A stretch of 64,000 bases of DNA from positions 31,150-95,149 of the forward strand of contig JAVZLH010000004.1 of assembly GCA_038883855.1 (NCBI GenBank). The letters run 5' to 3'. Below are positions 18,160 to 36,030 of this stretch, piece after piece. Source of the stretch: Candidatus Bathyarchaeia archaeon. Its GTDB lineage: Archaea > Thermoproteota > Bathyarchaeia > Bathyarchaeales > Bathycorpusculaceae. The translations under genes and the position numbers were made by a program. The notes below the pieces were generated by a model. The model was given only the letters and a program-made list of their open reading frames with translations. It did not search any database and had not been told where the DNA came from. Position 1 is the stretch's first letter, and every line of letters begins with the position of its first letter.

Positions 18160-19611
18160 TTACCTTTGAACTTTCCTTAGCAGTTTCCCATCGCGACTGT
18201 AAATTTCCACGGTTAGGGGCATCTGCCCCACGGCAAAATGTGTTGCGCATCCAAAGCATGGGTCATAAGCCCTGAAAGCCATTTCCACCATGTTAAGCAA
18301 GCCTTGGTCAACTTTGCCCCCGTGGATTAAACCTTTAGCAGCATTACGAACTGACATGTTTATCGACGGAGCATTATTAACTGTTGCCACAATCAAGTTT
18401 ACGTCTTTTATTAACGCGTCCTCATCCAAAACATAATGATGAATCAACGTTCCTCTCGCAGCTTCAACCACACCTACACCTTCGCCGGGCCTCCCGGGCT
18501 TGTTGCGAACATCTTTGCTTGTGATCTCCGGGTCTTTAGCCAGTTCCAAAGTTCTTTCAGCAGCGTAAAGCAGTTCGATAAGCCTAGCCCAGTGATAAGC
18601 TAGTGTTGAGTGAACTGGCCGGCCTAAAGTCTTATACATCAACTCATACTCTTCTTGGGCAAGCGGTGTAGCCATACCATCTGAGGCGTTAAGCCTTCCA
18701 AGCGGTCCGACACGGTATGCCCCGCTTTCTGGACCGTCTACAAAGCCTTTCCAGCCGATTTTCTTTAGGTATGGAAGTTTTACGTAGGTCCATTCTTCTA
18801 CATGTTCCGCTATGTGGTCTAGGTAGTTTTTCGCCTCAAACTTTGCGAACTCGTTTCCGTTTGGGTCGACGACCCGTATTTTGCCGTCGTAGAAGTTTAC
18901 TTTGTTTTTCTCGTCAACCAAACCCATATAATAGGTTTTCAGCGTGTAGGCGTCGCTTTTAATTAAGTCAACGTATTTGCTGTTTCCAAGAACAACATCG
19001 TGGAACAGTTTTAACGAGAACTTAGCAAAGTTGACGGCTGAAGCCGCCATCTTCTCAATTTCTTGCCTATTCTCCTCGCTTAATGGCTTAGATATCCCGC
19101 CAGGTATTCCACATACCGGATGCGTTGCTTTTCCGCCGATTATTTCGGTTATTCGTTGTCCATAGGCTCTGTGTTTTATGACTTCTTTGCCTATTTCTAA
19201 TCCAGCCTTTTCAATAACGCCTAGAACGTTGCGTTTTTCCGGCGGTGCGTCTGGACCGACAACAAAGTCTGGTCCACCAAGATAATAAAAGTGCAGTGTA
19301 TGGTCGTAGATGTAGTAGCCACAATACATAAGTTCCCGTAACTTTTTAGCTGCTGAGGGAGGCTCAACATTGAAGGCGGCGTCTAAAGCCTTTGTTCCAG
19401 CCATGTGGTGAGCGACGGGGCAGACTCCGCAGATTCTGCTCGTTAGAAGCGGCATGTCTTCAGCTTTTCTTCCGACGCAGAACCTTTCGAAGCCCCTCAG
19501 TTCTGGAATTTGCAGGTAGGCGTTTTCCACCTCACCGGCGTCGTTTAGGAAAATGGCTATTTTTCCGTGTCCCTCAAGTCTTGTTATTGGGTCTATGATT
19601 ATTTCTTTCAT
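18160..19611 (-). CDS. mvhA: [NiFe]-hydrogenase large subunit, group 3c (copy 1)
   Basis: TRLEGHG, L1 RICGVCPVAH, EAARGTLIHHY and L2 DPCFGCATH with a cleavable C-terminal tail. Confidence 0.94.
   Translation of the reverse strand: MKEIIIDPITRLEGHGKIAIFLNDAGEVENAYLQIPELRGFERFCVGRKAEDMPLLTSRICGVCPVAHHMAGTKALDAAFNVEPPSAAKKLRELMYCGYYIYDHTLHFYYLGGPDFVVGPDAPPEKRNVLGVIEKAGLEIGKEVIKHRAYGQRITEIIGGKATHPVCGIPGGISKPLSEENRQEIEKMAASAVNFAKFSLKLFHDVVLGNSKYVDLIKSDAYTLKTYYMGLVDEKNKVNFYDGKIRVVDPNGNEFAKFEAKNYLDHIAEHVEEWTYVKLPYLKKIGWKGFVDGPESGAYRVGPLGRLNASDGMATPLAQEEYELMYKTLGRPVHSTLAYHWARLIELLYAAERTLELAKDPEITSKDVRNKPGRPGEGVGVVEAARGTLIHHYVLDEDALIKDVNLIVATVNNAPSINMSVRNAAKGLIHGGKVDQGLLNMVEMAFRAYDPCFGCATHFAVGQMPLTVEIYSRDGKLLRKVQR
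19175..19337. repeat. 163-bp tract identical to 35594..35756 (between the two mvhA paralogs)
   Basis: Base-by-base comparison from TTTATGACTTC to AAGTTCCC showed no mismatch. Confidence 0.85.
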
Positions 19612-20588
19612 TTCATAACCCTCCTTCTAAGAATCGAAGCTGGTAAACCATACATGTAAAATGTTCCCACAGGGTCTTTTATCTGCGCTATAAGTTTCTC
19701 AACCTCTTCCTCCGTGTACTTTTCTTTCTCCTCTTCCAAGCCAAGTATCGAAGCCAAAGCACTTATCATCGCTGCACCTTGCTCTGGCGAGTTGGGGCAT
19801 GGTCCACCGCAGCCTGTGCATGGCATGTCAGCTTTTAAGCATCTTGCTCCGCATCCGCCGCGGGTTGCTGGACCCATGCATAGTATTCCCTGCTCAAGTA
19901 GGCAACGTTCCGGCTCCGGAGCCTTCTCGTAAACTCGGTATATTTTTGAGATTTTCTTATTCTCCTTCTTTCTTAGGCATTCGTCGCAAACAGATTTTAG
20001 CGGCGCGAGAACAGAGCCTTTTGGCGGAAGTTCTCCTTTGGCTATGGCTTCTATTGCGTAGAGTGTTCGTTCAACTGCTGGCGGACAGCCCGGTACATAA
20101 TAGTCAACTTCCACTGTTTGGTCTAAGGTTTTGACGGTGTCGTAAAATTCTGGAATTTCCAGTTCTCCCTCTTTAACTTTGACTTTTGGTTTGGGTGTTA
20201 CGCCGTTTGGGTTTACTGTGGAAAAAGTTTGCATGTAAACTTTTTCAAAAATTTCCTTCTTGTTTGTGAGGTTCGCCAGTCCAGGTACGCCTCCTAAATG
20301 AGCACAGGCGCCGTAGGCAACGAGCACTTTTGATTTTTTCCTTAAAAGTTTCGCCATATGCTCTTGTTCTGAGTTGCGTATTCCACCGTTAAAGAAGCAT
20401 ACATCTATGTATTTGTCCGGCATGTTTTCAACATCTTTATATTTTATGTCCATTGCTACCGGCCAGAAAACGACGTCGGCGATTTGCACTACGTCTAGGA
20501 TTTTCTCGTTTATGTCTAAAACGGCGATTTCGCATCCGCCGCAGCTCGCAGCCCAGTAGAAGGCAATCTTTAATTTGTTTTTCTCCAT
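19608..20588 (-). CDS. mvhG: [NiFe]-hydrogenase small subunit (copy 1)
   Basis: ASCGGCE, GACA, PGCPP, VCDEC and CMGPATRGGCGARC..PCTGC motifs. Confidence 0.93.
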   Translation of the reverse strand: MEKNKLKIAFYWAASCGGCEIAVLDINEKILDVVQIADVVFWPVAMDIKYKDVENMPDKYIDVCFFNGGIRNSEQEHMAKLLRKKSKVLVAYGACAHLGGVPGLANLTNKKEIFEKVYMQTFSTVNPNGVTPKPKVKVKEGELEIPEFYDTVKTLDQTVEVDYYVPGCPPAVERTLYAIEAIAKGELPPKGSVLAPLKSVCDECLRKKENKKISKIYRVYEKAPEPERCLLEQGILCMGPATRGGCGARCLKADMPCTGCGGPCPNSPEQGAAMISALASILGLEEEKEKYTEEEVEKLIAQIKDPVGTFYMYGLPASILRRRVMK

Positions 20589-20601: not shown

Positions 20602-21477
20602 TTAAACGTTACTTAAAACTTCTGTGGGCTTAACTCTAAGCTCGTCGAATCCGAGTTCTTTAGGTTGGAAGCCCATGGCTAAACCCAGCAGCTGCGTGTA
20701 GTGTAGCACTGGGATGCCGAACTTCTCGTTAAAAGTTTTTTCTATTCTGGATTGGTTAAGGTCGAACATTATGTGGCAGAATGGGCATATGGTAATCAGC
20801 GCCTGAGCTTTCACAGCCCTAATATTGCTGAGTTTTTCCTTTGCCATTTGGAATGGCACTTCCTCGTTTACGCCTATTATCGGGTTTCCACAACACTGAG
20901 TCTCATCCATGTAGTCTAGGCATTCAGCCCCGGTCAGCCTAATCAGTTCCTTAAGGGTTGTTGGGTTTTCAGGGTCGTCGCGGCCAACATACTTTGCTGG
21001 GCGGACGACGTGGCATCCGCTGTGTTGGGCAACTTGAAGTTTTGTTAGAGGCTTTTTAACAGCGCTTTTTATTTTCTCGAAGCCAACATCTTCAGCCAAA
21101 ACATAGATTAGATGTTTAACTTCTATTGTCCCTTTGAACTCCATGCCCATTTCCTTTAAGTAACCGTTAATCTTCTCCCTCAACTTTTTGTCTTCTTTAA
21201 GCATCTTGTTTGTTTCGTTTAGGCTGCTGAAGCATCCGTTGCACAAAGTTAAGATGTTGAGGTTTTCTCTTTCAGCCAAGCAGAGGTTTCGCGCCGCCAA
21301 AGTCAACATTAACTCATGGTTTATTGGGTCCATTGGTAGCCCGCAACAGTTGAATTCTGGCATCTCAACAAGTTCAACTCCGAGCTTGCCAAGGACTTTT
21401 CTCGCTGAAACCTCGTAGCTTGAAAGCCTATATGGGACGACGCAGCCTAGGAATATGAGGTATTTTGGATTTGCCAT
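20602..21477 (-). CDS. hdrB: Heterodisulfide reductase subunit B (copy 1)
   Basis: FLGC..CCG..CNGC and GCH..CCG..CPFC double CCG domains. Confidence 0.93.
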   Translation of the reverse strand: MANPKYLIFLGCVVPYRLSSYEVSARKVLGKLGVELVEMPEFNCCGLPMDPINHELMLTLAARNLCLAERENLNILTLCNGCFSSLNETNKMLKEDKKLREKINGYLKEMGMEFKGTIEVKHLIYVLAEDVGFEKIKSAVKKPLTKLQVAQHSGCHVVRPAKYVGRDDPENPTTLKELIRLTGAECLDYMDETQCCGNPIIGVNEEVPFQMAKEKLSNIRAVKAQALITICPFCHIMFDLNQSRIEKTFNEKFGIPVLHYTQLLGLAMGFQPKELGFDELRVKPTEVLSNV

Positions 21478-22031
21478 CAGCTTTTCACCTTCTCAAAAGT
21501 TTTCGCGTTTTCAAGAATCTTCGCCGAACCAGTAAGCTCAAATATTTTTGAAACGTCGGCGAGGTTTGGCTTTGGAAGAGGCGGTAAACCATCCTCCACC
21601 CTCTTTTTATGTCTTGACTCTGGAATGGCGTATACATAACCGCTTTTCAAAAGGTTAGTTGCCAACTCCTTGTAAACTAGAGGCATTATACCCTTATCTT
21701 TCGTAACCATGTTTCGTAAGGCGCGCACTATTCCAGCGATTTCAACACCCTGCGGACAGTGGTCAACACATGTGAAGCACGCTGTGCAAAGCCAAAGGGT
21801 GTCGTTTGACAAAAGCCTATCTTTTAGCCCAAGCTGCACCATTCTTGCTATCTTTCTTGGTCTGTAAAAGTCGCTGAACCTTGAGATTGGGCAGTCGGCT
21901 GTGCATGTTCCACACTGGAAGCAGAGCATTATTTTTTCTGCGCCATGTATCTTACTCATTTCATACTTGAATTTGGGATCTAGTTCCTCAGCCTTTATCA
22001 CGCTTGCAGCTTGCTCTTTAACTTCACTCAT
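21477..22031 (-). CDS. hdrC: Heterodisulfide reductase subunit C (copy 1)
   Basis: [12 protein letters not shown] and [14 protein letters not shown]. Confidence 0.93.
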
Positions 22032-22465
22032 TCGTTTTTCCCTCCACTCTTTAACGGGCTTGGACCAAGCTTTTTAATTTGTTCAACCATGTCCCTCACA
22101 ACAGCGGCAAACTTGTCTCCTTCACTTGCCGAAACCCACTCCAGTCGCACACGCTCCGGTTCTATTCCGAATTCCTGCAGAACCTTCTTTAGGAGCTTTA
22201 CCCTTCTTAAAGCTTTAAAGTTCCCGCTGAGGTAATGGCAGTCTGATGGTAAATGACAGCCGGCGACGAGAACCCCGTCAGCTCCATCCTTGAAGGCTTC
22301 TAAAATGAAGGCTGGATCTACTCTGCCGCTGCACATTACGCGGATAATTCTTATGTGTGGCGGGTATTGGATGCGGCTTACACCAGCCAAGTCTGCTCCA
22401 GCATAGGCGCACCAGTTGCAGAGGAAGCCAACAATTTTTGGTTCGAAATTTTTTTCGCCGCTCAT
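22028..22465 (-). CDS. mvhD: [2Fe-2S] adaptor subunit MvhD
   Basis: [26 protein letters not shown] and WVSASEG. Confidence 0.95.
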
Positions 22466-25400
22466 GCTGTTGCCTCCTCCATTAAGGCTGCTCTAACTTG
22501 AGCCATTATCTCTTCAGTTGTGAAGTGACCTAGGATTATGGCTTTTGTTGGACATGCTGTTCCGCAGACTCCGCATCCCTTGCAGAGGGCTTCAATTACG
22601 TGTGCAACTGGTTTGCCGTCTTTTTCTTTCATTTCTATCGCGCCGTAGGGACATAGATATTCACAGATTCTACAACCACTACATAAATCTTCATCCACGT
22701 TTGCGATGATTCCCTCGGTTTCAAGCGTCTTTTTCGATAATATCGTTGCGGCTCTTGCTGCTGCAGCACACGCTTGAGCGATGCTTTCGTCAATGTATTT
22801 GGGGAGATGCGCCATTCCACATAGGAAGACGCCGTCTGTTTGGAAGTCTACTGGTCTAAGCTTCATGTGGGCTTCTAGGAAGAAACCGTCTTTTGTCAGA
22901 GGCACTTTAAGCATTTCTGCTATGCGCTTATTATCTGGGTTTGGAACTGTGGCGGCGCTTAAAACAACGAGGTCTGGTTGGATTTCAATCTCCTCTTTAA
23001 TCACTGGTTCATAGAATCTTACTTCGAGTTTTCCACCAGTGTTTGTAACTTTTGGCTTTCTTTCATCATCATAGTTTATGAACATGACGCCTTTTTCCGC
23101 TGCCTTGCGATAATAGTCCTCTTTGAAACCATAACTTCTAACATCCTTGTAGAGAACGTAAACATCTGTCTGGGGGCTGGTCTCCTTGATTTTTAACGCG
23201 TTTTTGATGGCCTGCCCGCAGCATATCCTAGCACAGTTAGGTCTTTCTTCCGTTCTTGCGCCGACACATTGTATCATGACAACTGTTTTTGCTTTGAATT
23301 CGCCTTTCGCAATTTTCTCTTCCAACTCGTGTTGCGTCACTACCCTTGGGTCTTTACCATATAAGTATTCGGTTGGCTTGTATTCAACAGCTCCAGTTGC
23401 AACGATAACCACACCATGCTCTATTTCCTTTTCCTCGCCATTTTCCACAATTTTTGATTTAAAGTTGCCAACGAAACCGTTGACTTCAACGACTTCCGCT
23501 CCGAGGTGAACTTGTATCTTCTTGTTTTCCATAACCTCTTTAACTAGCTTGTTCAACTGTTCCTTCGGGTCTTCGCCTTCCAGCAGATAGTAGATTTTGC
23601 GCAGGTGTCCACCCAACTCTTTTTCGCGTTCTACAAGGTGAACTTCAAAGCCTTGCTTGGCAAGTTCTAGAGCTGCAGTCATGCCTGAAACTCCGCCGCC
23701 GATTATTAGGGCTACAGGCGTAACGCCTATCACTGGCTTCTTCAGAGGTTTCAGAAGCCTTGCTTTTGCAACCACTGACCGAACAAGGTCTTTGGCTTTT
23801 TCCGTTGCTTCCTTGGGCTGGTGCATATGCACCCAACTGCACTGGTCTCGGATGTTCGCCATCTCAAAGAGGTAGGGGTTCAAGCCAGCCTCTTGAACGG
23901 TTTCTCTGAAAAGCGGCTCATGTGTCCTAGGAGTGCAGGAGGCGACAACAACACGGTTAAGCTTATACTCTTGTATTTTCTCTTTTATCCTCTTTTGTGT
24001 GTCGTCAGAGCACGTGTAAAGGTTGTCTTCGGCGTAAACCACGTTTGGAAGTTTCCTCGCATATTCTACAACTTCCGGGACCCTTACTATTCCGCCGATG
24101 TTTATTCCACAGTGGCAAATGAAAACTCCTATACGCGGCTCTTCTTGGCTTACGTCCCTTTCAGGCGGATACTCCTTAACCGTTACGAACTTTCCTCTTT
24201 CAGAAGCTATTATGGACATGGCTTTTGAGGCTGCAGCACTCGCCTGCGCAACACTTTCAGGAATATCTTTCGGCGCGCTGAAAGCTCCACAGACAAATAT
24301 GCCTGGCTTTGATGTTTCAAGGGGCGTGAAGGTTTTTGTTTCACAGAAATGATATTTGTTAAGCTTTATCCCGAGGATTTTGGCAAGCTTTTCTATGTCT
24401 TTTGGCGGTTGCATTCCGGTGGAGAGAACAACCGTGTCGAACTCTTCTGTTTTCGGCGTTTCGTCCTCAACATAGTGGACGAAGAGGTTGTTTGTCGCCG
24501 GGTCTTCTGTTACGCTTGCAACCCTTGACCTCACAAACCTTATACCGTACTCCTCTTTTGCACGGTTGTAGTAGGCGTCAAACTCTTTTCCATAAGCGCG
24601 GATATCCATGTAGAAAATTGTGCAGTCAAGCTTTGTCGGCACATGTTCCTTAGCTATTATCGCCTCTTTAATGCCGTACATGCAGCACGCTGCAGAACAA
24701 TAGTTGTTTCCGAGTTGCGCATCTCGTGAGCCAACACATTGAATGAAGGCTATTTTCCGCGGGATTTCGCCGTCTGAAGGTCTTAGGACTATTCCGCCGT
24801 AGGGTCCTGAAGCGCTTAAAATGCGTTCGAACTCTATGCTTGTTACAACGTTTGGGAAGCGTCCATAACCATATTCGCTTTTGAGCCTAGCGTCGAAGGG
24901 TTCGAATCCTGGTGCTAGGATTATTGAGCCTACTTTTAGGGTTACTTCGCTGTCTTGCTGGTCGTATTCAACAGCCTTCGCCTTACATACTTCTTGACAT
25001 GTTCTACAGCCTATGCATTTTTCTCGGTTTATTATGAACCTTAACGGAACTGCTTGTGGATACTCAACGTAGATGGCGCTTTTATCAGTCAAGCCTTTAT
25101 TGTATGTGTCTATGGCTTCAACGGGACATTTTTGTGCGCACAGCCCGCAGCCGTTGCATTTTTCCTCGTTTATGTAACGGCTTCTTTTTCGAATTTTAAC
25201 TTCGAAGTTTCCAGCTTCGCCTTCTAAGCCCACCACTTCGCTGTTCGTAATCAAAGTTATGTTTGGGTGCCTTCCAGTTGTGACAAGCTTTGGTGCAAGA
25301 ATACACATTGAACAGTCGTTTGTTGGGAACGTCTTGTCAAGTTGCGCCATTACGCCGCCTATGCTAGGCGACTGGTCAACAAGGTACACTTTAAAGCCAG

Positions 25401-25482
25401 AGTCAGCCAAGTCTAGGGAAGCTTGTATTCCAGCGACGCCTCCGCCGACCACGAGGACTGAACCTACTTTTTCCTTAGCCAT
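22462..25482 (-). CDS. hdrA: Large (~1006 aa) HdrA with two tandem FAD modules
   Basis: Two GGGxxG FAD motifs, [23 protein letters not shown], an internal CHCGINI/CTPRTHE domain, a second IQCVGAR..CARICC and a C-terminal ferredoxin. Start at ATG 25482 after GGAGGT. Confidence 0.93.
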
Positions 25483-25483
25483 T

Positions 25484-26233
25484 TTACTTAACCTCCAAAG
25501 CTTTGTAAAGTGGAGTTGTTCCTTCAACCCTGTCTAGGGCTATCATCCCCTTTCTACGCATGTTAGTTATGTGTCGAAGAACTGCGGCTGGCTTAATGCC
25601 GAGGTTTTCGGCTAAAGCCTTAACTGAAAGGGGTTTATCCTTTGTGAGAAGGTGAATCTTATGTCGGATAAATTCTGCAGTAACGATTTCGTCTAATAAG
25701 GCGTCAAATTCCTCTTGTGGGATTTTTTCGCCATAGGCGTTTAGGAAGTTTGTCAGTTCTTCCTCCCTTCCCAAAAGAACTCTAAGTCTAAAATCTGATG
25801 CCGCGTTCTTTGCTGCCAGAATATTTTCTGAAATTTTTGATTTCGGCTCTTTCAATGGGGAAGCGCCAAGCTTCCAGATGTCTTCTGAAAACTCTCTTGC
25901 AAGGTAACTGAAACTTATCTCTTCCAATGGTGAAGACCAAAACAGTTTCAAGCGTTCAGGTTCAAGACCAGTTAAAGCCATCAGCTTCTTCAACATTTTG
26001 ACAGCGCGTTCTGCTTGAAGGTTGCCGTCGACAAAGTGGCAGTCTGGCGGTTTGCATCCAACCAGCATTACGCCGTTTGCTCCCTTGGCGAATGTTTCTA
26101 AAACTATAACTGGGTCTATCCTTCCAACACATGCAACGCGGACAACGTTAACGTTTGATGGAACATGTAATTCTTCTTGGCAGTAAGTCCAGTTACACAT
26201 GAAACAAACAATTTTAGGCATGTTACGTTCCAT
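25484..26233 (-). CDS. MvhD-like [2Fe-2S] domain fused to a helical linker and a C-terminal winged helix-turn-helix
   Basis: FMCNW, ACVGRIDP, GCKPPDCHF and LEPERL, then LSVKALAENLGIKPAAVLRHITNMRRKGMI. Start at ATG 26233 after GGGAGGT. Confidence 0.85.
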   Translation of the reverse strand: MERNMPKIVCFMCNWTYCQEELHVPSNVNVVRVACVGRIDPVIVLETFAKGANGVMLVGCKPPDCHFVDGNLQAERAVKMLKKLMALTGLEPERLKLFWSSPLEEISFSYLAREFSEDIWKLGASPLKEPKSKISENILAAKNAASDFRLRVLLGREEELTNFLNAYGEKIPQEEFDALLDEIVTAEFIRHKIHLLTKDKPLSVKALAENLGIKPAAVLRHITNMRRKGMIALDRVEGTTPLYKALEVK

Positions 26234-26238: not shown

Positions 26239-27954
26239 TTACCTCCCTAAAGCTGCCGAAACGAGCATTAAAATTTGCTCGTTGGTCAGCTTCTTCATTG
26301 TTATGGCTTGTTCGGGACATCTAGCCGCACATACCCCGCATCCCTTGCATAGGTCTTCGTTTACCTGCGCTATTCCTTTCTCGTTCTTTTTAATTGCCTC
26401 AACGGGGCAGATAACCGCGCACACGTTGCATCCTACACAGCGGTTTTCATCCACAACGGCCTTATCGCCTTCGCATAAGTCCATGCTTGCAAGGCATTCT
26501 GAACATGGTCCACAGCCCAAACAGCGAAACGCTTCAAAACGCGCCTTCTGCTTTATCCTCTCCAAATATTCCACAGCTTCTTCAAAGCTTAAATGAGGCT
26601 TCTCTATGGGCGGTTCATACCTACGCTCTTTCTTCTTTATAGAACCCCAGTTTTTAACCCAGGTTGTCTCTTCAACCTTCTCCTCTCTACCCTTCCGCAA
26701 ATCTTGACCCCTAAGATAAAGATGGATGGAAACAGCCGCCCTTTTTCCAGCGCCCACAGCCTCAATTATGCTTGCGGGCCCAGTGGCTATGTCGCCTCCA
26801 GCGAAAACTCCTGGAACATTTGTTTCCAATGTTAACGGGTCAACTTGTAAGGGTGGACCCTTTTTGTCTTGGCTTAAAACTTCTGCTGGCAGACACTCGG
26901 TTTCAGCCACTTGTCCAAGGGCTGGAATCACCATGTCAACTTCATATTGGTGTTCTGAGAAACTTATTGGAACTGGGCGTCTTCTTCCGCTTTCATCTGG
27001 TTCGCCGAGGCGCATTCTCAGGCATTCAACAGCCTTAACCTTTCCATTTTCGCCTATAATCTGTTTCGGAGCAACCAACAGGTAGATTTTTATTCCGTCT
27101 TTTTCAGCCAGCTCCACCTCGTGCGGCAGCGCCGGCATTTCCTCACGTGAACGCCTATAAAGAATCATGACCTCTTTTGCGCCAAGCTTCTTTGCAGTTC
27201 TAGCTGCGTCGATTGCGGTGTTTCCGCCGCCGATCACAGCAACCCTTTCGCCGACGGTAACATGCTCGCCAAGCGCCACCGCCCTCAGAAAGTCTACAGC
27301 ATTAATAACGCCTTCTAAATCTTCGCCGGGCACATTTAATTTCATGCCTTTCTGTGTTCCGATGGCTATGAAAAACGCTTTGTAACCATCAGCCTTTAAG
27401 CTTTCAAGCGTCACATCTTTTCCAAATTCTACGCCAGTTTTTATTTCAACGCCTAAATCTTGGATGTAGGCTATTTCGTTTGCAACAACAAATTTTTCAA
27501 GACGAAAGTTTGGGAGACAATACCGCATCATGCCGCCTGGCTCGGACATGCGCTCAAAAACGGTTACGGGATAACCGAGCTTTGCAAGTTCGTAGGCTGC
27601 TGTTAACCCTGCGGGTCCAGCCCCTATTACGGCGACTTTTTCGCTGTATTTCTTCGGTATTGGGTCAGGCTTTACCCGTCCTTGTTCGCGTTCTATGTCT
27701 GCAACAAGCCTTTTTAGAGCGCGGATGGCTACGGCTTGGTCAACATTAACTCTTGCGCAAGCGTCTTCGCATGGGCTGAAGCATACTCTTCCACAGATTG
27801 CAGGGAAGGGCATGTCCTTTCTTATAACTTCCACAGCCTCTCTGAATTTACCCCTTTGAATCAGAGAAACATATGCTTGAACGTTTACCCGCGCTGGGCA
27901 CACCGCCCTACACGGGGGCAACAATCTTTTTTCACTTATTGGAATGGCTGTCAT
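26239..27954 (-). CDS. GltD/NfnB/HdrL-like FAD- and NAD(P)H-binding Fe-S oxidoreductase with C-terminal ferredoxin
   Basis: PCRAVCP, CGRVCFSPCEDAC, GAGPAG, GGGNTAID..YRRSREEMPA, FAGGD, RCLGCGPCSEC and two CxxCxxCxxxCP motifs. Confidence 0.9.
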   Translation of the reverse strand: MTAIPISEKRLLPPCRAVCPARVNVQAYVSLIQRGKFREAVEVIRKDMPFPAICGRVCFSPCEDACARVNVDQAVAIRALKRLVADIEREQGRVKPDPIPKKYSEKVAVIGAGPAGLTAAYELAKLGYPVTVFERMSEPGGMMRYCLPNFRLEKFVVANEIAYIQDLGVEIKTGVEFGKDVTLESLKADGYKAFFIAIGTQKGMKLNVPGEDLEGVINAVDFLRAVALGEHVTVGERVAVIGGGNTAIDAARTAKKLGAKEVMILYRRSREEMPALPHEVELAEKDGIKIYLLVAPKQIIGENGKVKAVECLRMRLGEPDESGRRRPVPISFSEHQYEVDMVIPALGQVAETECLPAEVLSQDKKGPPLQVDPLTLETNVPGVFAGGDIATGPASIIEAVGAGKRAAVSIHLYLRGQDLRKGREEKVEETTWVKNWGSIKKKERRYEPPIEKPHLSFEEAVEYLERIKQKARFEAFRCLGCGPCSECLASMDLCEGDKAVVDENRCVGCNVCAVICPVEAIKKNEKGIAQVNEDLCKGCGVCAARCPEQAITMKKLTNEQILMLVSAALGR

Positions 27955-28055
27955 CGGTTAGACCAGCCTCTTAGAAGTATATTCGAATGTTTTGTCCAAT
28001 ATATTAACCCACCTAAACCATGTTTAACATATATGTAACACAAGATTTTTAACAG

Positions 28056-28076: not shown

Positions 28077-28667
28077 TTATTCGCGGAGCCTTCCTTCAAG
28101 TTTGCTTACCCACTTATTGTATTCTCTTGGGCCTAACAAGCCTTTTAGTTCCTCTTCCAAAGTCATGGAGTTTTTGGGTTTAATCTCGATTATCCAGCCT
28201 TCGCCATACGGATCCTCATTTATCAGGTGAGGTTTATCCCTCAAATTCTCGTTAACCTTAACGATTTTACCGCTTACAGGTGCGTAAAGGTCAAACATGA
28301 ACATCCATGTTTCAGCCACACCGAAAGGCTCCATTTTGTTAACTTCTTTCCCAACAGGGTCTGTAATAACGTTTGCAATGCCCTTTAAGTGTTTTTGAGC
28401 GTAGTCTGAAACGCCCACGCGTATGTTTCCTTCAGGGGTTATTTGAGCCCAAGTGTGCTTTGGTGTGTATAGCAGTTGTTCAGGTACCGCTAGGAGTTCT
28501 TTGCACTTTTCGGCTGGAATGCCCTCAGCGCGCATAAGTTCTTCTAAGCGCAGTCGGATTGCTTCTGAAACGAACTCCGATATGCTTCGGTAACGGCCCG
28601 TTTTGAGAGCTTTTTCGATTTCTTTTATGAGTTCTTGCCTTATACTTACGGTTTTCCATTCTGACAT
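28077..28667 (-). CDS. Ribbon-helix-helix domain fused to a GcvH-like domain lacking the lipoyl-lysine
   Basis: N-terminal WKTVSIRQELIKEIEKALKTGRYRSISEFVSEAIRLRL (RHH). C-terminal YTPKHTWA, VGVSDYAQ, DLYAPVSGKIVKVN and INEDPYGEGWI (GcvH), with ETWM in place of ESVK. Confidence 0.88.
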   Translation of the reverse strand: MSEWKTVSIRQELIKEIEKALKTGRYRSISEFVSEAIRLRLEELMRAEGIPAEKCKELLAVPEQLLYTPKHTWAQITPEGNIRVGVSDYAQKHLKGIANVITDPVGKEVNKMEPFGVAETWMFMFDLYAPVSGKIVKVNENLRDKPHLINEDPYGEGWIIEIKPKNSMTLEEELKGLLGPREYNKWVSKLEGRLRE

Positions 28668-28802
28668 TTTACATCAACCTCCTTTACATCTACGTGATAT
28701 ATAGAGCAAAGCTAAAGATATATATCTAACGTAAATAAAAAATATAGAATAAATAAATGTGTCAAAGTATATATCGTAAGTATAAGTAAAGAGTTGGTAA
28801 AT

Positions 28803-29876
28803 ATGGAGATTAGAAAAGTACAGAAAGTCGGCCACTCAACAATGACAGTTTCACTTCCAAGCGAGTGGGTGAAACAACACAACCTCAAACCCAGCGACCT
28901 CCTGTTCATTGTTCCAGAAAGAGACGGTTCGCTTAAGTTGATGCCAAGCCAACTAGCCCAAAGAGAGGAAGCAGAAGAATACGTGATAAATGCTGATGCT
29001 TGCGATGAGCCTGGAATGCTTGAAAGGATAATTGTCGGCGGTTATATACTTGGAAGAGACGTAATAAGGGTTATTTCTTCAAGTCGCATAGGGAAAGCCC
29101 ACGTAGACGAAGTGAGAAATATTGTCCAGAAGCTCATAGGTTTGGGTATTCTCGAGGAAACGCCGAAGAGCATCCTTCTCCAATGCTCAATTGACTCGAC
29201 AAAGTTCAAGCTCGACATGTTGATTAGGCGGCTTTCGCTAATCGCCTCCACCATATTGTCGGAGGCAGTTCAAGGTTTTCGAGAGAAAAACTATGATTTA
29301 GTGGAGGAGGCGATCGCCCGCGAAGATGAAGCAGACAAAATCTACTATTTGGCAGTGCGTCTGCTGCTTTCTGCACAGATAAAACCAGACATAGCAGAGG
29401 AAGTCGGTATGGTAGATATACTTTTCATTCCAGCAGCCAGAGTAATACTACAATATTTGGAGTTGGTTGCAGACTACTCGGAATTTTTAGCCAGAGAAGT
29501 TCTTGAAATGGAAGTGTACCGTAACAGGTTGCCGAACGAATTGGTTGATAGAATTTGCCATCTCAGTGAGTTAACCCAAACAATTTTTCAGAAAGCTGTG
29601 GAGTGCGTTTTCACAAGAGACTTAAAAGTTGCAAATCAGCTTTTGGAGATGAAAAACGTACTTGAAATAGACTCAAACAGACTTATGCGAGAGGCGCCAG
29701 AGATTCCCTATGTTAGGGCGATTCTTTCATGTCTAAGCAAGATTGCAGACAAAGGCGCAACCATAGCTGAAATAGCCATAAACAGAGCTTTGGAAGAACC
29801 TAGCAGGTACGCGGGGAACATTGTTCGAGCAGTGAAGCACGTGCGGACTATGCCGTTACCTGCTGGAAAGAGATAA
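28803..29876 (+). CDS. AbrB-domain/PhoU-family transcriptional regulator
   Basis: RKVQKVGHSTMTVSLPSEWVK (AbrB-like), IGLGILEE, EDEADKIY and LELVADY PhoU repeats; divergent from the RHH-GcvH gene. Confidence 0.88.
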   Translation: MEIRKVQKVGHSTMTVSLPSEWVKQHNLKPSDLLFIVPERDGSLKLMPSQLAQREEAEEYVINADACDEPGMLERIIVGGYILGRDVIRVISSSRIGKAHVDEVRNIVQKLIGLGILEETPKSILLQCSIDSTKFKLDMLIRRLSLIASTILSEAVQGFREKNYDLVEEAIAREDEADKIYYLAVRLLLSAQIKPDIAEEVGMVDILFIPAARVILQYLELVADYSEFLAREVLEMEVYRNRLPNELVDRICHLSELTQTIFQKAVECVFTRDLKVANQLLEMKNVLEIDSNRLMREAPEIPYVRAILSCLSKIADKGATIAEIAINRALEEPSRYAGNIVRAVKHVRTMPLPAGKR

Positions 29877-30425: not shown

Positions 30426-30629
30426 CTAAATGGGCACGGTTACACCTTTTTGTTTTATTCTTCTTCTGCAAGCTTCCTCTTCGGCGCACTTTACACAAGT
30501 GTAAATGACATCAAACTCGCTTTTCTCAGGGTTTGCAGGATTTACAAGGAAGGCGAGACACTCTTCACCCTTATTTATTGTCCCGCCACAACAATAGCAT
30601 TTATGCTCTTTTAAGGCTCTAACCTTCAT
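30426..30629 (-). CDS. Small Cys-rich putative zinc-finger protein
   Basis: RALKEHKCYCCGGTINKGE...YTCVKC (CxxC pairs), 67 aa. Confidence 0.65.
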   Translation of the reverse strand: MKVRALKEHKCYCCGGTINKGEECLAFLVNPANPEKSEFDVIYTCVKCAEEEACRRRIKQKGVTVPI

Positions 30630-30741: not shown

Positions 30742-31617
30742 CTAGCCTATCTTCTCAAGCACTTTGTCAATTTTCATTTTGTGGAAGTCAAGCGCCAGCT
30801 CCTTGGGTTCCACGCCTAGGCTTAGGCTCAACAGCTCAGCGTAATGGACTATAGGCATATTGTATTCTTCTTTATAAGAGGATTTTATCAGCATCTGCCC
30901 AAGGTCAAGGGTTAGGAAACAGAAGGGACAAAGCGTTGATATGCAGTCGGCGCCAGCTTCTGTTGCGTTTACAATTTTGTCTCTTGCTATTGCCAAAGCA
31001 ACATCGTCCGCGTAACCCCTAAGGAGACCGCCACAACATCTCAGCTTGTTTCTGTACCAGATGCTTTTTGCGCCTAAAGCCTCAATTAACGTGTCAAAGA
31101 TTCTTGGGCGTTCAGGATCGTCGAACCTTAAGAGCGCGCTTGGTCTGAGAAGGTGGCATCCAGAGAAAGAAGCCACTTTCAACTTGCTTAATGGTTTAAC
31201 AACGCTTCTTTTTAGGCGGTCTACACCAATGTCCTTCATTAAAACTTGAAGGAAATGCCTAACTTCCTTGTTGCCCTTAAACTCCTTGCCAACATTCGCT
31301 AGGATTCTGTTCACCCGTTCTCGCAGTTCCTCTTTTTCTTTCAGCAAAGTGTTTGTCATTGCCAGAGACTCGAAACATCCCGTGCAAAGTGTGACTATGT
31401 TTAGGTCGGCTTCTTCGGCTAGGCAAATGTTGTAGGCTGCAATGGCTAGGCTTGTTCCCAAATCTATAGACTGCAGCGGTGGAGGAGCGCAACACGTCAT
31501 ATTCTCTAGGTCAACGAGTTCTATTCCCAGCTTTGTTAGGGCTTTTCTCGCTGAAAGTTCGTAGTGGGGTTGGCGGGCAGGTATTGTGCATCCTAAAAAT
31601 AACGCGTAGGTCGTCAT
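30742..31617 (-). CDS. hdrB: Heterodisulfide reductase subunit B (copy 2)
   Basis: FLGC..CCAP..CTGC and GCH..CCGG..CPFC. Confidence 0.92.
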   Translation of the reverse strand: MTTYALFLGCTIPARQPHYELSARKALTKLGIELVDLENMTCCAPPPLQSIDLGTSLAIAAYNICLAEEADLNIVTLCTGCFESLAMTNTLLKEKEELRERVNRILANVGKEFKGNKEVRHFLQVLMKDIGVDRLKRSVVKPLSKLKVASFSGCHLLRPSALLRFDDPERPRIFDTLIEALGAKSIWYRNKLRCCGGLLRGYADDVALAIARDKIVNATEAGADCISTLCPFCFLTLDLGQMLIKSSYKEEYNMPIVHYAELLSLSLGVEPKELALDFHKMKIDKVLEKIG

Positions 31618-32123
31618 TGGGATTCACCTTTTTTAAACATGATTTTATCAAAGCCTGTTGCTGAAAGAATCTTCTTTACGGCGTCGACACCAGTTGGTTT
31701 CAAGGGCGGCAGCCCATAGTCTCCCCGCTTCTTTTCCAAGAATTTTGATATGGGAACTATGCGTCCTTCATTCATTATCCCAGCTGCGAACTCAGCATAG
31801 ATGTTGGGTATGTTGCCCTCACGTATGGCCATGTTTCTCAAGGCGTAGATGACATCTGCAATTTCAACTTTCTGCGGGCAGCGTTCCTGGCAGTTGTAGC
31901 AGGAGGCGCAGAGCCAAATGGCGTCGCCTGCAATGACGTCTTGTCTAAGCCCTAAAAGTGCGAGGCGAATGATTTGTCTTGGATTGTAGCGGTCTGTGGT
32001 TTTTGCTACTGGACAGCTGCTGGCGCATGTTCCGCATTGATAGCAGTAGGTTATTGTTTCTCCGCCGAGTCTGCTGGTTATCTCTTTTGTAAAGTCTGTG
32101 GTTGAAGTTTTTTCCTGCGCCAT
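31614..32123 (-). CDS. hdrC: Heterodisulfide reductase subunit C (copy 2)
   Basis: CYQCGTCASSCP and WLCASCYNCQERCP. Confidence 0.93.
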   Translation of the reverse strand: MAQEKTSTTDFTKEITSRLGGETITYCYQCGTCASSCPVAKTTDRYNPRQIIRLALLGLRQDVIAGDAIWLCASCYNCQERCPQKVEIADVIYALRNMAIREGNIPNIYAEFAAGIMNEGRIVPISKFLEKKRGDYGLPPLKPTGVDAVKKILSATGFDKIMFKKGESQ

Positions 32124-32138
32124 TATAGTTATCTCCTA

Positions 32139-34613
32139 TTAGGCTAGTTGCAGCAGCCCTAATTTCTCCACTCTTTCAGTCATAGTTCTAGCGGCTTCAG
32201 CGAACTTGTCTCCCTCAATGTAGACGAGGTTAAACATTTCAAGCCTTTCGGGTTCTATGCCGCACTCCTTAAGCAGCTTCTTCGCCAGTTCCACTTTCAC
32301 TTTGGTTTTTTGGCTGCCAACTTCATAGTGGCAACCGTCTGGTTTGCATCCGACAACCATAACTCCTTGGGCGCCAGCCTTGAAGGCTTCGAGTATTTGC
32401 TGAACTTGAACCATGCCCGTGCACGGAACTTTCAGCACTCTTACGTTTGCTGGATACTGCATCATAGCCATGCCTGAAGAGTCCACTGCCGCGTGACCAC
32501 ACTCTGAGCAGCTTATGGCTAGAATCAGCGGTTTAGATGTTCCATTCACTGAAAGCAACGCCTTCATTTGGGCTGATATTTGGGCTGGCTTCAAGTGGCG
32601 GAGTTCAATGGCTCCGACGGGGCATGTTCCTACACATACGCCGCATCCTTCACAGAGAAGGTCGTCTACTTTCGCGACAAAGTGCTCCTTGTCCTTTGGC
32701 ACTAGGCTTATGGCGCCGTATGGGCATGTGACTGGACAGAATTCACAGTCGCCGCAGTAATCCTCATTCACAAAGGCGGTTTTTCGGTCTTTGATTATTT
32801 TGCCATTTGTGAGGAATTTGGCTGCTTTCACCGCCGCCGAGTGGGCATGTAAGGATGTTGTCGGCGCGTCTTTTGGGAAGGTTGCACCTCCGCAGAGGAA
32901 TATTCCCCTACACTTTGTTTCCGTAGGTCTGAGTTTCGCATTGTATTCTTTGAAGAAGCCGTCTTGGTCGAGTTCTAAGCCGAGGATTTCGGCAAGTTCC
33001 TTTGTGCCTTCGGCTGGAACCATGGCTGCCGCGAGAACCACAAGGTCAGCTTCTAACTCCAAGAATTTCCTCAAAAGTTCGTCTTCAACATCCACCACAA
33101 GCGTGTTTGTTGCTGGGTCATGCAGAATTTCTGTCGGTCTGCCTTTAACAAATTTTATTCCCATTTCTCTGGCTTTTTCATAATAGTATTCATGTTCTCT
33201 TCCAGTTGTCCTAATGTCAATGTAGCATATTGTGACATCAGCGTCTGGATAAGCTTCCTTGATTAGGGTTGCGTGCTTCAGCGATATCATGCAGCATATG
33301 CTTGAGCAGTAGGGGTTCCAGCGCCTATCCCTAGAGCCGACACATTGCACGAAAACTATTCGTTTTGCTGGTTTCTTGTCTGAGGGTCTTATTAACGCGC
33401 CGTTTGTAGGTCCAAAAGCGTCCAGCATCCGTGCAAGTTCCAAGTGAGTTATGACGTCTGGATACTCGCCATAATGGTATTCTTTGATTACGCTCGGGTC
33501 GTATTCCTTGAATCCCGTGGCAACTATTAGGCCTCCAACGTTGAGAGTTAGGTTTTCAGTCTTCTGGTTCAGTTCAATAGCCTTTGTTGGGCAGACCTCA
33601 ACGCACTTTGCACATTCAGCAAACTTGCAGGCTTTCTCGTCTATGACATAAACTGGCGGATAAATGAGAGGCTTGTTTATGTAGATTGCCTTGCGCGTTT
33701 TGAGCTTCGCGTTATACTCGTCTGGCACCTCAACGGGGCAAACAGTCGTGCATAAATCGCAGCCTACGCATTTCTTTTCATTAACATATCTCGGCTTTTT
33801 CTCTATCGTCACCTTATAGTTTCCAGGAACACCCTCAACTTTTACAACTTTAGAGTTTGTAAGCACGTTTAGGTTTGGAATTTCAGAAAATCCCGAACGG
33901 TAAACGCATTTTCGCGATGTGTGAGTTACTGTTTTCAGGTCTGAGGCTGGAGATTGTATGCATATGGCACAGTCGTCTGTTGGGAAGAAACGCACAGCCC
34001 TAGCAGCCAATCCGCCCAAGAAAGGTTCTTTTTCAACTAAGTAAACCTCGAAGCCCATGTCTGCCAAATCTTCAGCAGCTTGCATTCCACCTATTCCACC
34101 GCCAATCACAAGAACGGATTTGACGACTGGAAACTCGAGTTTCTCTATTGGTTCGGAAAGTTTAACGCATTCTATGGCGGCTAAAAGCATCGCTTTAGCT
34201 TTTTCAGTTGCTTCTTTCGGCGCATCTCGATGAGGCCATGCACAATGGTCTTTTATGTCTAGAACTTCCATAAGGTTTGGATTTAGCCCAGCTTCTTCAA
34301 CGGCTGTGGCTATGGCGATTTCGCTTATTTTTGGAATACTTTCGGCGACGACAACTCTATTCACTTTCTTGTCTTTAACGGCGTCAACTATGGTTTTTAG
34401 TCCTTGACCACGCCAGAACTCGCTTCCTCTCGCAACAAAAGTCACTCCTTGAACGTTTTTCACGAAGTTTTCTAAGGCTTCAAAGTCGAGGATTTTTGCG
34501 ATTTGCCCTCCACAATTTGATAGGAATACTCCAATTTTTACTTCTTCCAAGGCTTTCACCTTACCTTTTACTTTATCTTTTGAGCGTTTTGACGAGCCTC
34601 TTTTGGCTGTCAT
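32139..34613 (-). CDS. hdrA: HdrA-MvhD fusion with degenerate N-terminal Fe-S domain
   Basis: GGGIGG, FPTDDC, an inserted ferredoxin, VQCVGSR..YCSSICC, a C-terminal ferredoxin and an MvhD domain (CSECG, PCTG, GCKPDGCHY). Start at ATG 34613 after GGAGGTG. Confidence 0.9.
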   Translation of the reverse strand: MTAKRGSSKRSKDKVKGKVKALEEVKIGVFLSNCGGQIAKILDFEALENFVKNVQGVTFVARGSEFWRGQGLKTIVDAVKDKKVNRVVVAESIPKISEIAIATAVEEAGLNPNLMEVLDIKDHCAWPHRDAPKEATEKAKAMLLAAIECVKLSEPIEKLEFPVVKSVLVIGGGIGGMQAAEDLADMGFEVYLVEKEPFLGGLAARAVRFFPTDDCAICIQSPASDLKTVTHTSRKCVYRSGFSEIPNLNVLTNSKVVKVEGVPGNYKVTIEKKPRYVNEKKCVGCDLCTTVCPVEVPDEYNAKLKTRKAIYINKPLIYPPVYVIDEKACKFAECAKCVEVCPTKAIELNQKTENLTLNVGGLIVATGFKEYDPSVIKEYHYGEYPDVITHLELARMLDAFGPTNGALIRPSDKKPAKRIVFVQCVGSRDRRWNPYCSSICCMISLKHATLIKEAYPDADVTICYIDIRTTGREHEYYYEKAREMGIKFVKGRPTEILHDPATNTLVVDVEDELLRKFLELEADLVVLAAAMVPAEGTKELAEILGLELDQDGFFKEYNAKLRPTETKCRGIFLCGGATFPKDAPTTSLHAHSAAVKAAKFLTNGKIIKDRKTAFVNEDYCGDCEFCPVTCPYGAISLVPKDKEHFVAKVDDLLCEGCGVCVGTCPVGAIELRHLKPAQISAQMKALLSVNGTSKPLILAISCSECGHAAVDSSGMAMMQYPANVRVLKVPCTGMVQVQQILEAFKAGAQGVMVVGCKPDGCHYEVGSQKTKVKVELAKKLLKECGIEPERLEMFNLVYIEGDKFAEAARTMTERVEKLGLLQLA

Positions 34614-36030
34614 AAATTTCCACCTCCAACGGCATTTGACCAGCCGCAAAGTGGGTTGCACAAGCAAAACACGGGTCGTAAGCCCTAAAAGCCATCTCCA
34701 CCATGTTCAATATTCCGTCAGTAACCTTACCCTTCTTGATCAAGCCCTTAGCAGCGTTCTTTATTGACATGCAAATGCCCGGGACATTGTGGGTTGTAGC
34801 CACTATCAAATTGACTTTTTTGGCTAAGGCATTCTCGTCCAACTGATAATGGTGTATTAATGTGCCTCTTGCAGCCTCCACTATGCCGACGCCTTCGCCT
34901 GGTTTGCCCGGCTTGTTTCTAATGTTTTTCCCAGTTATGTCTGGGTCGGTTACGAGTTCGAGAGCTCTTTCAGCAGCGTAAAGCAGTTCGATAAGCCTAG
35001 CCCAGTGATAAGCCAACGTGTTGTGGACTGGTTTTCCGCCTAGGGTTTTATACATACGCTCGTATTCCGCTTGGGCTAACGGTGTTGCCATTCCGTCGGC
35101 GGCGTTAAGCCTTCCAAGTGGACCGACTCTGTAGACGCCGTTTTCCAAACCGTCGACAAATCCTTTCCATCCTACCTTTTTGAGGTATGGAAGTTTAACG
35201 TAGGTCCACGGTTCAACACGTTCCTCTATTATGTCAAGGTATTCTTTTGGAGAGAATTTAACGAACTCTTTGCCTTGCGGATCTACGACTCTGACGTCGC
35301 CGTCGTAGAAGTTTACTTTGTTGTTTTTGTCAACCAAACCCATGTAATAGGTTTTCAGCGTGTATGGTTCGCTTGTGATTAGTTTTACGTATTCTGTGTT
35401 TTTGAGAACTATGTCGTCGAACAGTTTAAGAGAGAACTTTGCAAACTCTAAACAGCTTCGCACCATTTTCTCGATTTCTTTTCTTTCCTCTTCAGATAAT
35501 CCCTTTGCTATTCCGCCTGGCACGCACGCGCTGACCGGGTGTGTTGCTTTTCCGCCCAATATCTCGGTTATTTTCTGTCCGTAAGCCCTATGCTTTATGA
35601 CTTCTTTGCCTATTTCTAATCCAGCCTTTTCAATAACGCCTAGAACGTTGCGTTTTTCCGGCGGTGCGTCTGGACCGACAACAAAGTCTGGTCCACCAAG
35701 ATAATAAAAGTGCAGTGTATGGTCGTAGATGTAGTAGCCACAATACATAAGTTCCCTAAGTTTTTTGGCTGTTTCTGGCGGTTCCACGTTGAAGGCTGCG
35801 TCTAAGGCTTTGGCGCCTGCCATGTGGTGGGCTACTGGGCATACGCCGCAGATTCTTGTTGTTATTATGGGCAGGTCTTCTGCTCTCCTTCCTTCGCAGA
35901 ATCTTTCGAAACCGCGGAGTTCTGGAACTTGGAAGTAGGCTTCGTCCACATCGCCTTGATCGTTTAGGAATATGGTTATTTTTCCGTGGCCTTCAAGTCT
36001 TGTTATTGGGTTTATAACGATTTCCTTCAC
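34573..36030 (-). CDS. mvhA: [NiFe]-hydrogenase large subunit, group 3c (copy 2)
   Basis: RICGVCPVAH and DPCFACATH; closely paralogous to 18160..19611. Confidence 0.94.
   Translation of the reverse strand: MKEIVINPITRLEGHGKITIFLNDQGDVDEAYFQVPELRGFERFCEGRRAEDLPIITTRICGVCPVAHHMAGAKALDAAFNVEPPETAKKLRELMYCGYYIYDHTLHFYYLGGPDFVVGPDAPPEKRNVLGVIEKAGLEIGKEVIKHRAYGQKITEILGGKATHPVSACVPGGIAKGLSEEERKEIEKMVRSCLEFAKFSLKLFDDIVLKNTEYVKLITSEPYTLKTYYMGLVDKNNKVNFYDGDVRVVDPQGKEFVKFSPKEYLDIIEERVEPWTYVKLPYLKKVGWKGFVDGLENGVYRVGPLGRLNAADGMATPLAQAEYERMYKTLGGKPVHNTLAYHWARLIELLYAAERALELVTDPDITGKNIRNKPGKPGEGVGIVEAARGTLIHHYQLDENALAKKVNLIVATTHNVPGICMSIKNAAKGLIKKGKVTDGILNMVEMAFRAYDPCFACATHFAAGQMPLEVEIYDSQKRLVKTLKR
35594..35756. 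repeat. 163-bp tract identical to 19175..19337
   Basis: Same comparison as above. Confidence 0.85.

Follow-up and report, generated by a model that had tools for sequence, protein, structure and literature searches.

The window analysed here is a stretch of 64,000 nucleotides (nt) from a Candidatus Bathyarchaeia archaeon (assembly GCA_038883855.1, contig JAVZLH010000004.1, positions 31,150 to 95,149). The gene under study lies on its minus strand, in a string of genes for Hdr and Mvh-type [NiFe]-hydrogenase subunits, and encodes a 249-amino-acid (aa) protein, hereafter the long MvhD. As the initial annotation had recognised, this protein joins an MvhD domain to a C-terminal winged helix-turn-helix (wHTH). 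Two readings were offered there: an iron-sulfur (Fe-S) redox-sensing transcription factor, for which we find little support, or an alternative adaptor for the NAD(P)H flavoprotein encoded upstream. The second fares better. The long MvhD is probably not a transcription factor but an additional, specialised [2Fe-2S] adaptor of the MvhD type within a Bathyarchaeia Hdr/Mvh supercomplex; its winged-helix tail most likely serves to join protein partners and not to bind DNA.

The open reading frame (ORF) begins at the ATG at 26233, with a ribosome-binding site (RBS), GGAGGT, 7 nt 5' of it, and ends with the stop codon at 25484-25486 (coordinates of the features are collected in Table 1). An alternative, longer ORF starts at 26320; since it runs into the upstream gene and homologues begin at the shorter start, the 249-aa start and the coordinates 25484..26233 are correct. 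Five nucleotides separate the ATG from the stop of the preceding gene, and a single nucleotide separates the long MvhD stop from the hdrA ATG at 25482. This is a tight operon, with translational coupling to both neighbours. The upstream neighbour is a GltD-like flavoprotein scoring 514.5 bits against NCBIfam PRK12771 (cut-off 516), and its C-terminal tail holds two CxxCxxCxxxC motifs, with aa 498-569 aligning with HdrA2 positions 571-641 in NCBIfam. The downstream neighbour is a tandem HdrA with two Pyr_redox_2 stretches and Fer4 domains in Pfam, matched by HdrA2/HdrA in three stretches in NCBIfam. The same operon also encodes a canonical MvhD, as initially annotated. That an ordinary MvhD is already present could be taken in favour of a free-standing regulator; however, a gene wedged between two structural genes with spacers of 5 and 1 nt argues against one.

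The N-terminal part is a full-length MvhD domain. Pfam PF02662 (FlpD/MvhD) matches it from model position 1 to 123 (E 1e-32, 113.2 bits, cut-off 22.3), and a PDB sequence search returned six MvhD-type sequences of 129-141 aa, all aligned via aa ~5-131, the best being 5odc_D (E 8.8e-23). In NCBIfam no model spans the protein from end to end; the MvhD part of HdrA2 and VhuD match it, both below their cut-offs. An AlphaFold2 (AF2) model of the full-length chain (predicted local distance difference test score, pLDDT, 84.5; predicted template modelling score, pTM, 0.85) retrieved 5odh_D with Foldseek (E 2.1e-9, TMt 0.79, root mean square deviation, rmsd, 2.5 A, 131 columns), with 8rvu_F and 7bkb_F similar. 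The four MvhD-type cysteines pointed out initially, C13 (CNW), C35 (CVGR), C60 (GC) and C65 (DCH), are invariant in 65 orthologues and form the only conserved cysteine columns across 24 diverse long MvhD proteins. They are putative [2Fe-2S] ligands, a role that we take in part from known MvhD structures. Alignment to 5odc_D places the 'AGADLAG' loop after CNW at 7 residues shorter than in solved MvhD, so the shortening holds but not its proposed size of about 10 residues. In the same alignment the second cysteine of the usual CNWC is T16, with a cysteine two residues on, C18; the cysteine or selenocysteine (Sec) beside the cluster at this position, as in the BamF protein discussed below, is thus not present. 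Cys10 and Cys18 (aa 10-18, window 26180..26206) never vary among the 65 Bathyarchaeia orthologues but do so in the wider family of long MvhDs; they might take the place of the redox-active Cys/Sec that has been noted beside the cluster in MvhD and BamF.

The C-terminal extension (aa 124-249) had been described as about 120 residues ending in an ArsR/MarR-like pattern; it has 126 residues, of which the last ~63 are a winged helix, and none of the six solved MvhD-type sequences matched above has such an extension. Within it, HTH_24 covers aa 195-231 (E 1.7e-6, 27.9 bits, cut-off 21.9); eleven other HTH families, PF0610-like_N and LexA_DNA_bind, and likewise HTH_5 and MarR, fall under their Pfam cut-offs. 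The preceding aa 129-186, which no Pfam model covers, comprise three short helices, a conserved RLR...GN(V/A)YGE loop and the first part of a long helix. The PDB sequence search gave only weak matches for the C terminus, to winged-helix regulators (E 0.012-0.12), and Foldseek with the full-length model returned MvhD chains only and nothing for the C terminus; we therefore folded the module (aa 129-249) alone, from an alignment of 59 sequences (the window protein, 23 from related loci and 35 short library proteins). The resulting AF2 model (pLDDT 93, pTM 0.83) shows, in order, three short helices, the GN(A/V)YGE loop, a 27-residue helix, a helix-turn-helix and a beta-hairpin. The chain ends 3-4 residues past this hairpin, the wing (to module residue 117 of 121), and no helix follows it. 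With this model, Foldseek ranked ArsR/SmtB and MarR regulators best (HlyU 3jth_A, E 7.6e-4; SmtB 1smt_A, 1.1e-3), only two matches lying at E<=1e-3. VIA-align, run over 48,161 chains, placed 1ku9_B first (Z 9.1, 84 aligned residues, rmsd 2.4 A), followed by PH1932 2cwe_A (Z 8.9, 61 aligned, rmsd 0.8 A, 28% identity) and dozens more wHTH proteins at Z 7-8.5, in a range where values of 7-8 are common. The winged-helix assignment is safe because of the superpositions below 1.6 A over ~60 residues and the Pfam HTH_24 match. Foldseek on the predicted C-terminal structure, the check suggested in the initial annotation, has thus found the wHTH fold; that this fold serves only as a structural contact, with no nucleic-acid binding, which had been named there as the contrary case, appears from the sequences to be the likelier outcome.

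Is the tail of the long MvhD compatible with binding to DNA? Were the protein a free-standing transcription factor, its [2Fe-2S] cluster would sense the redox state and its winged helix would bind an operator of the hdr/mvh operon. The true wHTH fold with ArsR/MarR-type best matches speaks for this, as do the HTH_24 score and the basic character of the wHTH part, whose net charge is +6. However, ArsR/SmtB and MarR proteins have a C-terminal dimerisation helix or helices after the wing, and here the chain stops after the wing, so this element is absent. The charge of the wHTH part also spans -3 to +7 in the family, with a mean of +2.1. Winged-helix regulators typically read bases with the N-terminal half of their recognition helix and with basic residues of the wing. 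In the long MvhD, positions 216, 217, 220, 221 and 224 in the N-terminal half of this helix, the third, vary among the 65 orthologues (position 220: R51 K7 C4 E1 Y1 G1), although these orthologues share the same operon, and the tip of the wing is acidic (E237 in 59 of the 65). Invariant in all 65 are M225, R226, R227, G238, P241, Y243, A245 and L246; in the 59-sequence module alignment, positions conserved at 90% or more are R151, N165, Y167, E169, E187, I193, S203, P241 and Y243. We regard this as soft evidence: the pattern seems to fit a protein interface better than the reading of DNA. A complex prediction of the GltD-like protein with aa 129-249 scored 0.00 in both of its runs, which had no controls, and counts neither for nor against such an interface.

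Relatives of the long MvhD are numerous: of 1834 candidates from a search with the whole protein, 934 are homologues at E<=1e-3. The top 120 measure 236-260 aa, with identities of 67-100%, and the organism names supplied for homologues by the sources are Bathyarchaeia/-ota/-ales, Bathycorpusculaceae and, once, Nitrososphaerota. A profile search with diverse long MvhDs returned mostly 258-aa proteins, with Bathyarchaeota the sole organism label among the best 120. Some homologues are named 'F420-reducing hydrogenase delta subunit/biotin operon repressor' or '.../predicted transcriptional regulator' by the JGI pipeline, names that would suit a regulator. Of the 462 pattern matches in a species-level collection of genomes, 441 encode a relative. 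Among the best 80 loci, 75 have a name in Bathyarchaei* within their titles; the others are labelled uncultured archaeon, Thermoproteota, Krumholzibacteriaceae, Acidoferrum or Methanocellales, the last three of which may be binning errors. The source genome itself (1.11 Mb, 24 contigs, 85% complete) encodes five FlpD domains, in the canonical MvhD, the long MvhD and three ORFs of 795-855 aa; the tail is found on the long MvhD only.

Gene order around the long MvhD is strongly conserved. We called ORFs in the best 80 loci and classed them by BLASTP against the window proteins, which gave 81 copies of the gene, one locus (L071) having two. A tandem HdrA gene follows directly in 78 of the 81, the remaining three (L010, L063, L073) running off the locus. 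Three other copies (L041, L072, L078) have their 5' side at the locus edge; elsewhere the preceding gene is GltD-like (56 copies) or HdrA-like, either tandem or second half (22 copies). The GltD-like genes include three shorter ones (L044, L071, L080; 432-466 aa) with only Fer4_20 and a C-terminal Fer4, and one encoding an 806-aa flavoprotein (L064:4572-6989) whose N-terminal ~300 aa match MTTB trimethylamine-methyltransferase (E 8e-32) ahead of Pyr_redox_2 and a C-terminal Fer4; this last ORF was scanned from stop to stop, so that a gene-fusion artefact is possible. Specificity of the module for GltD-like partners was considered and rejected, since an HdrA-like gene takes the upstream place in 22 of 78 loci. 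Whatever their class, the 78 upstream ORFs have in common two CxxCxxCxxxC motifs in their C-terminal 85 residues, the same pair as in the window GltD-like protein and in the tandem HdrA that precedes the canonical mvhD. The long MvhD in turn aligns through aa 3-124 with HdrA2 positions 645-773 in NCBIfam. The upstream ferredoxin domain and the MvhD domain are hence collinear with HdrA2 571-773, and the pair looks like a split ferredoxin-MvhD unit. In L071, two successive pairs of long MvhD (L071:7001-7753 and L071:10750-11535) and tandem HdrA stand before the canonical mvhD, the second long MvhD being 49% identical to the window protein.

The module was also sought outside this context, by a full HMMER scan of aa 129-249 against 1.84 billion representatives. 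There were 178 representatives at E<=1e-3 (83 at E<=1e-10 and two at E<=1e-30), most spanning nearly the whole query, and the best 150 of the 178 were classed with a local FlpD profile. Half of these (75 of 150) have FlpD directly ahead of the module: 25 are plain full-length proteins (~215-300 aa), 37 are plain but cut at the N terminus, and 13 have extra N- or C-terminal parts. A further 38 are fragments starting inside the module, 36 (among P0122-P0268) are module-only proteins of ~110-140 aa with at most 30 residues in front, and one has another N terminus. Counting only those representatives in which over 30 residues stand before the module, FlpD thus precedes it in 75 of 76. Many of the N-terminally cut forms begin at the Met of '(V)MCSGR', a start that gene calling would give if there were a TGA selenocysteine codon at the CNW-C position.

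Pfam was run on 46 of the 150, favouring long proteins and adding three short ones; 39 contain FlpD, and seven short proteins gave no match. Several of the long ones are oxidoreductase chains of 1227-1737 aa with the module inside. In P0213 (1737 aa) the order is HdrA - Fer4 - FlpD (598-720) - module (740-838) - Fer4 - Fer4_20 - Pyr_redox_2, and P0258, P0247 and P0222 share its FlpD-module-GltD-like order; P0132 and P0190 are HdrA-Fer4-FlpD-module, and P0153, P0225, P0226, P0248 and P0197 are Fer4-FlpD-module. No regulator-type architecture of the module occurs among the representatives classed or scanned with Pfam. These fusions lead us to regard the module as a fixed appendage of MvhD domains that can sit in the middle of an oxidoreductase; on the whole we consider a free-standing transcription factor highly improbable. 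In the ESM Atlas, look-alikes of the module were FlpD+HTH_5 clusters, mostly from Thermodesulfobacteriota. At their scores (0.91 for the top match, below 0.9 for the rest) we treat these as a lead only, and any wider taxonomic range depends on this lead, since the library searches gave scarcely any organism label.

We therefore favour an adaptor, because of the operon coupling, the invariant position between a gene ending in a ferredoxin domain and tandem hdrA, the MvhD-module-GltD-like fusions, and the precedent of BamF. Several observations pull the other way. The nearest solved folds of the C terminus are almost all DNA-binding regulators, HTH_24 exceeds its cut-off, and the wHTH part of the window protein is clearly basic. 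The gene in front of the adaptor is not GltD-like in 22 of 78 loci. The module-only proteins could be free-standing regulators, or else products of split genes or of truncated calls. Our models show helices only in the stretch that separates the MvhD domain from the wHTH, and so appear to differ from the two Rossmann folds described for BamF. Finally, we infer the complex from gene order, fusions and analogy.

An intermediate possibility is that the protein works as an adaptor in the complex and that its unassembled or cluster-damaged form binds DNA and feeds back on expression. Such moonlighting would reconcile the operon and fusion evidence for a subunit with the basic, Pfam-passing wHTH of this subfamily, and the existence of module-only proteins agrees with it; the conserved patch (MRR, G238, P241, Y243), however, is not where wHTH regulators usually read bases, and we consider this quite unlikely. 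Still less should be staked on the subunit doubling as a redox sensor, in which oxidation or loss of the cluster, or failure to assemble, would let the winged helix bind DNA and tune the operon. If this very unlikely version were true, the protein would represent a hitherto undescribed class of Fe-S transcription factors, one based on the MvhD fold. A third possibility is that the module acts within its own subunit, as a lid or stabiliser on the MvhD domain, as a gate for the mobile arm, or as a small-ligand site. The pTM of the full-length model suggests a fixed packing of the module on the MvhD domain; upstream, the neighbour is GltD-like in some loci and HdrA-like in others. In the fusions, on the other hand, the module links MvhD to the flavoprotein domain that follows, and the winged helix of BamF contacts another subunit (10.64898/2026.04.10.717634). 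We think it unlikely that the module acts in this way.

For the long MvhD as an adaptor, we propose the following scheme. NAD(P)H would reduce the FAD of the upstream GltD-like protein, and electrons would pass through the Fe-S clusters of that protein to its C-terminal HdrA-type 2x[4Fe-4S] domain, then to the [2Fe-2S] cluster of the long MvhD domain and on towards a flavin of the tandem HdrA; the direction, delivery or uptake, could be either. The long MvhD together with the upstream ferredoxin domain would form the same 'arm' as the C-terminal domain of HdrA together with the canonical MvhD, which would do the equivalent job for the MvhAG hydrogenase. The fused, hence asymmetric, HdrA dimer would then carry two unlike arms, one for H2 and one for NAD(P)H. 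The module of ~110 aa (the RLR...GNVYGE helical segment and the winged helix) would be a docking element derived from a DNA-binding fold, fixing the adaptor to a flavoprotein. Its partner may be either the GltD-like protein or HdrA: the module stands between MvhD and the next flavoprotein, which is GltD-like in the HdrL-like chains and a tandem HdrA in these operons.

Flavin-based, electron-bifurcating Hdr complexes are built of exchangeable donor modules joined via MvhD. The locus points to a conserved cassette, ferredoxin domain - MvhD - winged-helix module, that joins two flavoenzymes; its parts are encoded by separate genes in many Bathyarchaeia and are fused in other organisms. If our reading is true, Bathyarchaeia hard-wire H2 (through MvhAG) and NAD(P)H (through the GltD-like protein) onto one fused HdrA dimer by means of two MvhD paralogues, which would bear on the balance of H2, NAD(P)H and ferredoxin in abundant uncultured archaea of sediments and hot springs. 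It would also be another case of a DNA-binding fold reused for protein docking, and a warning against automatic 'transcriptional regulator' names in the MvhD + winged-helix family.

Table 1. Coordinates of the long MvhD gene, its parts and the Hdr/hydrogenase genes of the window
Feature	Position	Strand	Basis
Long MvhD-type subunit gene, MvhD domain + C-terminal module, 249 aa	25484..26233	-	ORF, RBS, homologues
MvhD/FlpD domain, aa 8-123	25865..26212	-	Pfam PF02662, PDB sequence search, Foldseek, Cys conservation
N-terminal half of C-terminal module, aa 129-186	25676..25849	-	AF2 module model, conservation
Winged helix-turn-helix, aa 187-249	25487..25675	-	HTH_24, Foldseek, VIA-align, secondary structure
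GltD/NfnB-like NAD(P)H flavoprotein, 571 aa, upstream gene: Fer4_20 + FAD/NAD(P) domain	26239..27954	-	Pfam
HdrA-type 2x[4Fe-4S] ferredoxin domain, C-terminal end of GltD-like protein, aa ~498-571	26242..26463	-	NCBIfam, motifs
Tandem HdrA, two thioredoxin-reductase-like halves, 1006 aa from ATG 25482, downstream gene	22462..25482	-	Pfam, NCBIfam
Canonical MvhD, 145 aa, same gene string	22028..22465	-	FlpD E 8e-58
HdrC-like 2x[4Fe-4S] subunit	21477..22031	-	Fer4_8 + Fer4_17; name from position beside HdrB
HdrB-like subunit, two CCG domains	20602..21477	-	PF02754 E 1.2e-30
[NiFe]-hydrogenase small subunit, MvhG-like	19608..20588	-	PF01058
[NiFe]-hydrogenase large subunit, MvhA-like	18160..19611	-	PF00374
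[NiFe] small subunit, second string	36027..36968	-	
[NiFe] large subunit, second string	34573..36030	-	
HdrA-MvhD fusion, 842 aa, second string	32139..34667	-	
HdrC-like, second string	31614..32123	-	
HdrB-like, second string	30742..31617	-	
Third HdrA-like protein, 790 aa, C-terminal FlpD/MvhD at aa 656-773	40226..42598	-	

Other genes of the region deserve mention. Directly upstream of the GltD-like gene, 28077..28667 (minus strand) encodes a 196-aa protein with a weak N-terminal ribbon-helix-helix match (RHH, CopG-like, E 0.004) and a GcvH/lipoyl-carrier-like domain (PF01597, E 1.1e-30). This RHH-GcvH gene is kept at the same position in most of the related loci that have a GltD-like gene. 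Sulfur-oxidising Hdr-like systems are accompanied by GcvH-like lipoate-binding proteins, and the RHH-GcvH protein may be the real regulator of the operon or a carrier protein. A divergent gene at 28794..29876 (plus strand), whose place is conserved in related loci, encodes a 360-aa protein with an AbrB/MazE-like domain and two PhoU domains and is a further candidate regulator of the region. Any operator motif in the promoter regions on either side of the RHH-GcvH gene (~27955-28076 and 28668-28793) might just as well be a target of one of these two proteins. The window also holds a second Hdr/hydrogenase string (30742..36968, minus strand) and a third HdrA-like gene, beside which 37312..40065 encodes a 917-aa ADP-forming acyl-CoA synthetase-like protein with a GNAT acetyltransferase domain. 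Between the two Hdr strings lies a 67-aa Cys-rich ORF (30426..30629, minus strand) with two CxxC-like pairs and no Pfam match at 1e-8.

How does the long MvhD compare with known systems? It shares the FlpD domain of MvhD/VhuD from the Mvh(Vhu)-Hdr complexes of methanogens (5ODC/5ODH chain D, 7BKB chain F), to which it is 37-38% identical and superimposes with the TMt given above, over ~131 columns; the four conserved cysteines and the neighbouring hdrA are common to both. It differs from them by the 7-residue shorter loop, T16, the invariant Cys10/Cys18 and the 126-aa extension, and the PDB sequence search found no long MvhD-type chain. With the ArsR/SmtB and MarR regulators (HlyU 3JTH, SmtB 1SMT, PH1932 2CWE), the module shares the wHTH fold (rmsd 0.8-1.6 A, ~60 residues) at 21-28% identity; unlike them, it has no helix after the wing and is fused behind an Fe-S domain, in a family whose context is exclusively redox enzymes.

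MvhD-like adaptors that serve other donors are known. FlxD of the FlxABCD-HdrABC system of Desulfovibrio links an NAD(P)H-oxidising module to Hdr, although its NADH module, FlxA, is of another type. In Elp-Hdr, the MvhD paralogue ElpC is described as serving an alternative donor module, ElpAB (PMC12350162). Like the long MvhD, ElpC (8RVU chain F; Foldseek E 1.7e-8) is a dedicated paralogue encoded alongside a canonical MvhD; it is short (129-136 aa), is without the winged helix and has F420H2 as donor via ElpAB. One Hdr is also reported to bind two different input modules through VhuD copies (PMC13518236). Among the HdrA types set out in one source, type II has two thioredoxin-reductase domains and type III a GltD insert, the latter occurring in Bathyarchaeota next to mvhADG (PMC12054007), and HdrL is presented as an Hdr/glutamate-synthase fusion co-located with mvhD (PMC2702500). 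HdrL and type III HdrA resemble the present locus in linking a GltD-like NAD(P)H domain to HdrA with MvhD, and the P0213-type chains carry HdrA, ferredoxin, MvhD, module and GltD-like parts together. In the window, by contrast, the genes are separate, in the order GltD-like, MvhD-module, tandem HdrA, so that GltD-like and HdrA parts are on different polypeptides. Neither the module nor a winged helix is mentioned in the accessible parts of the HdrL and type III descriptions (PMC2702500, PMC12054007).

A full-text literature search found a winged helix on an MvhD-type protein described in one preprint only, which reports the cryo-electron microscopy structure of the class II benzoyl-CoA reductase of Geobacter metallireducens (10.64898/2026.04.10.717634). 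There, BamF is described as an adaptor homologous to MvhD that exceeds the usual length by more than 100 aa, its winged helix contacts BamI, the electron-input module, and BamE is 'a fused HdrA dimer' (10.64898/2026.04.10.717634). BamF is also said there to have two Rossmann-fold domains and Sec19 near its cluster (10.64898/2026.04.10.717634). The long MvhD, by comparison, has in our models one Rossmann-like domain and a helical segment, is without Sec and has a GltD-like input; an MvhD domain with an extension of more than 100 aa ending in a winged helix, and a fused HdrA dimer, are common to the two systems as described. The long MvhD belongs to a large, so far unnamed family of MvhD + winged-helix module proteins. 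BamF, the only published analogue found, appears by its description to be the closest precedent for it.

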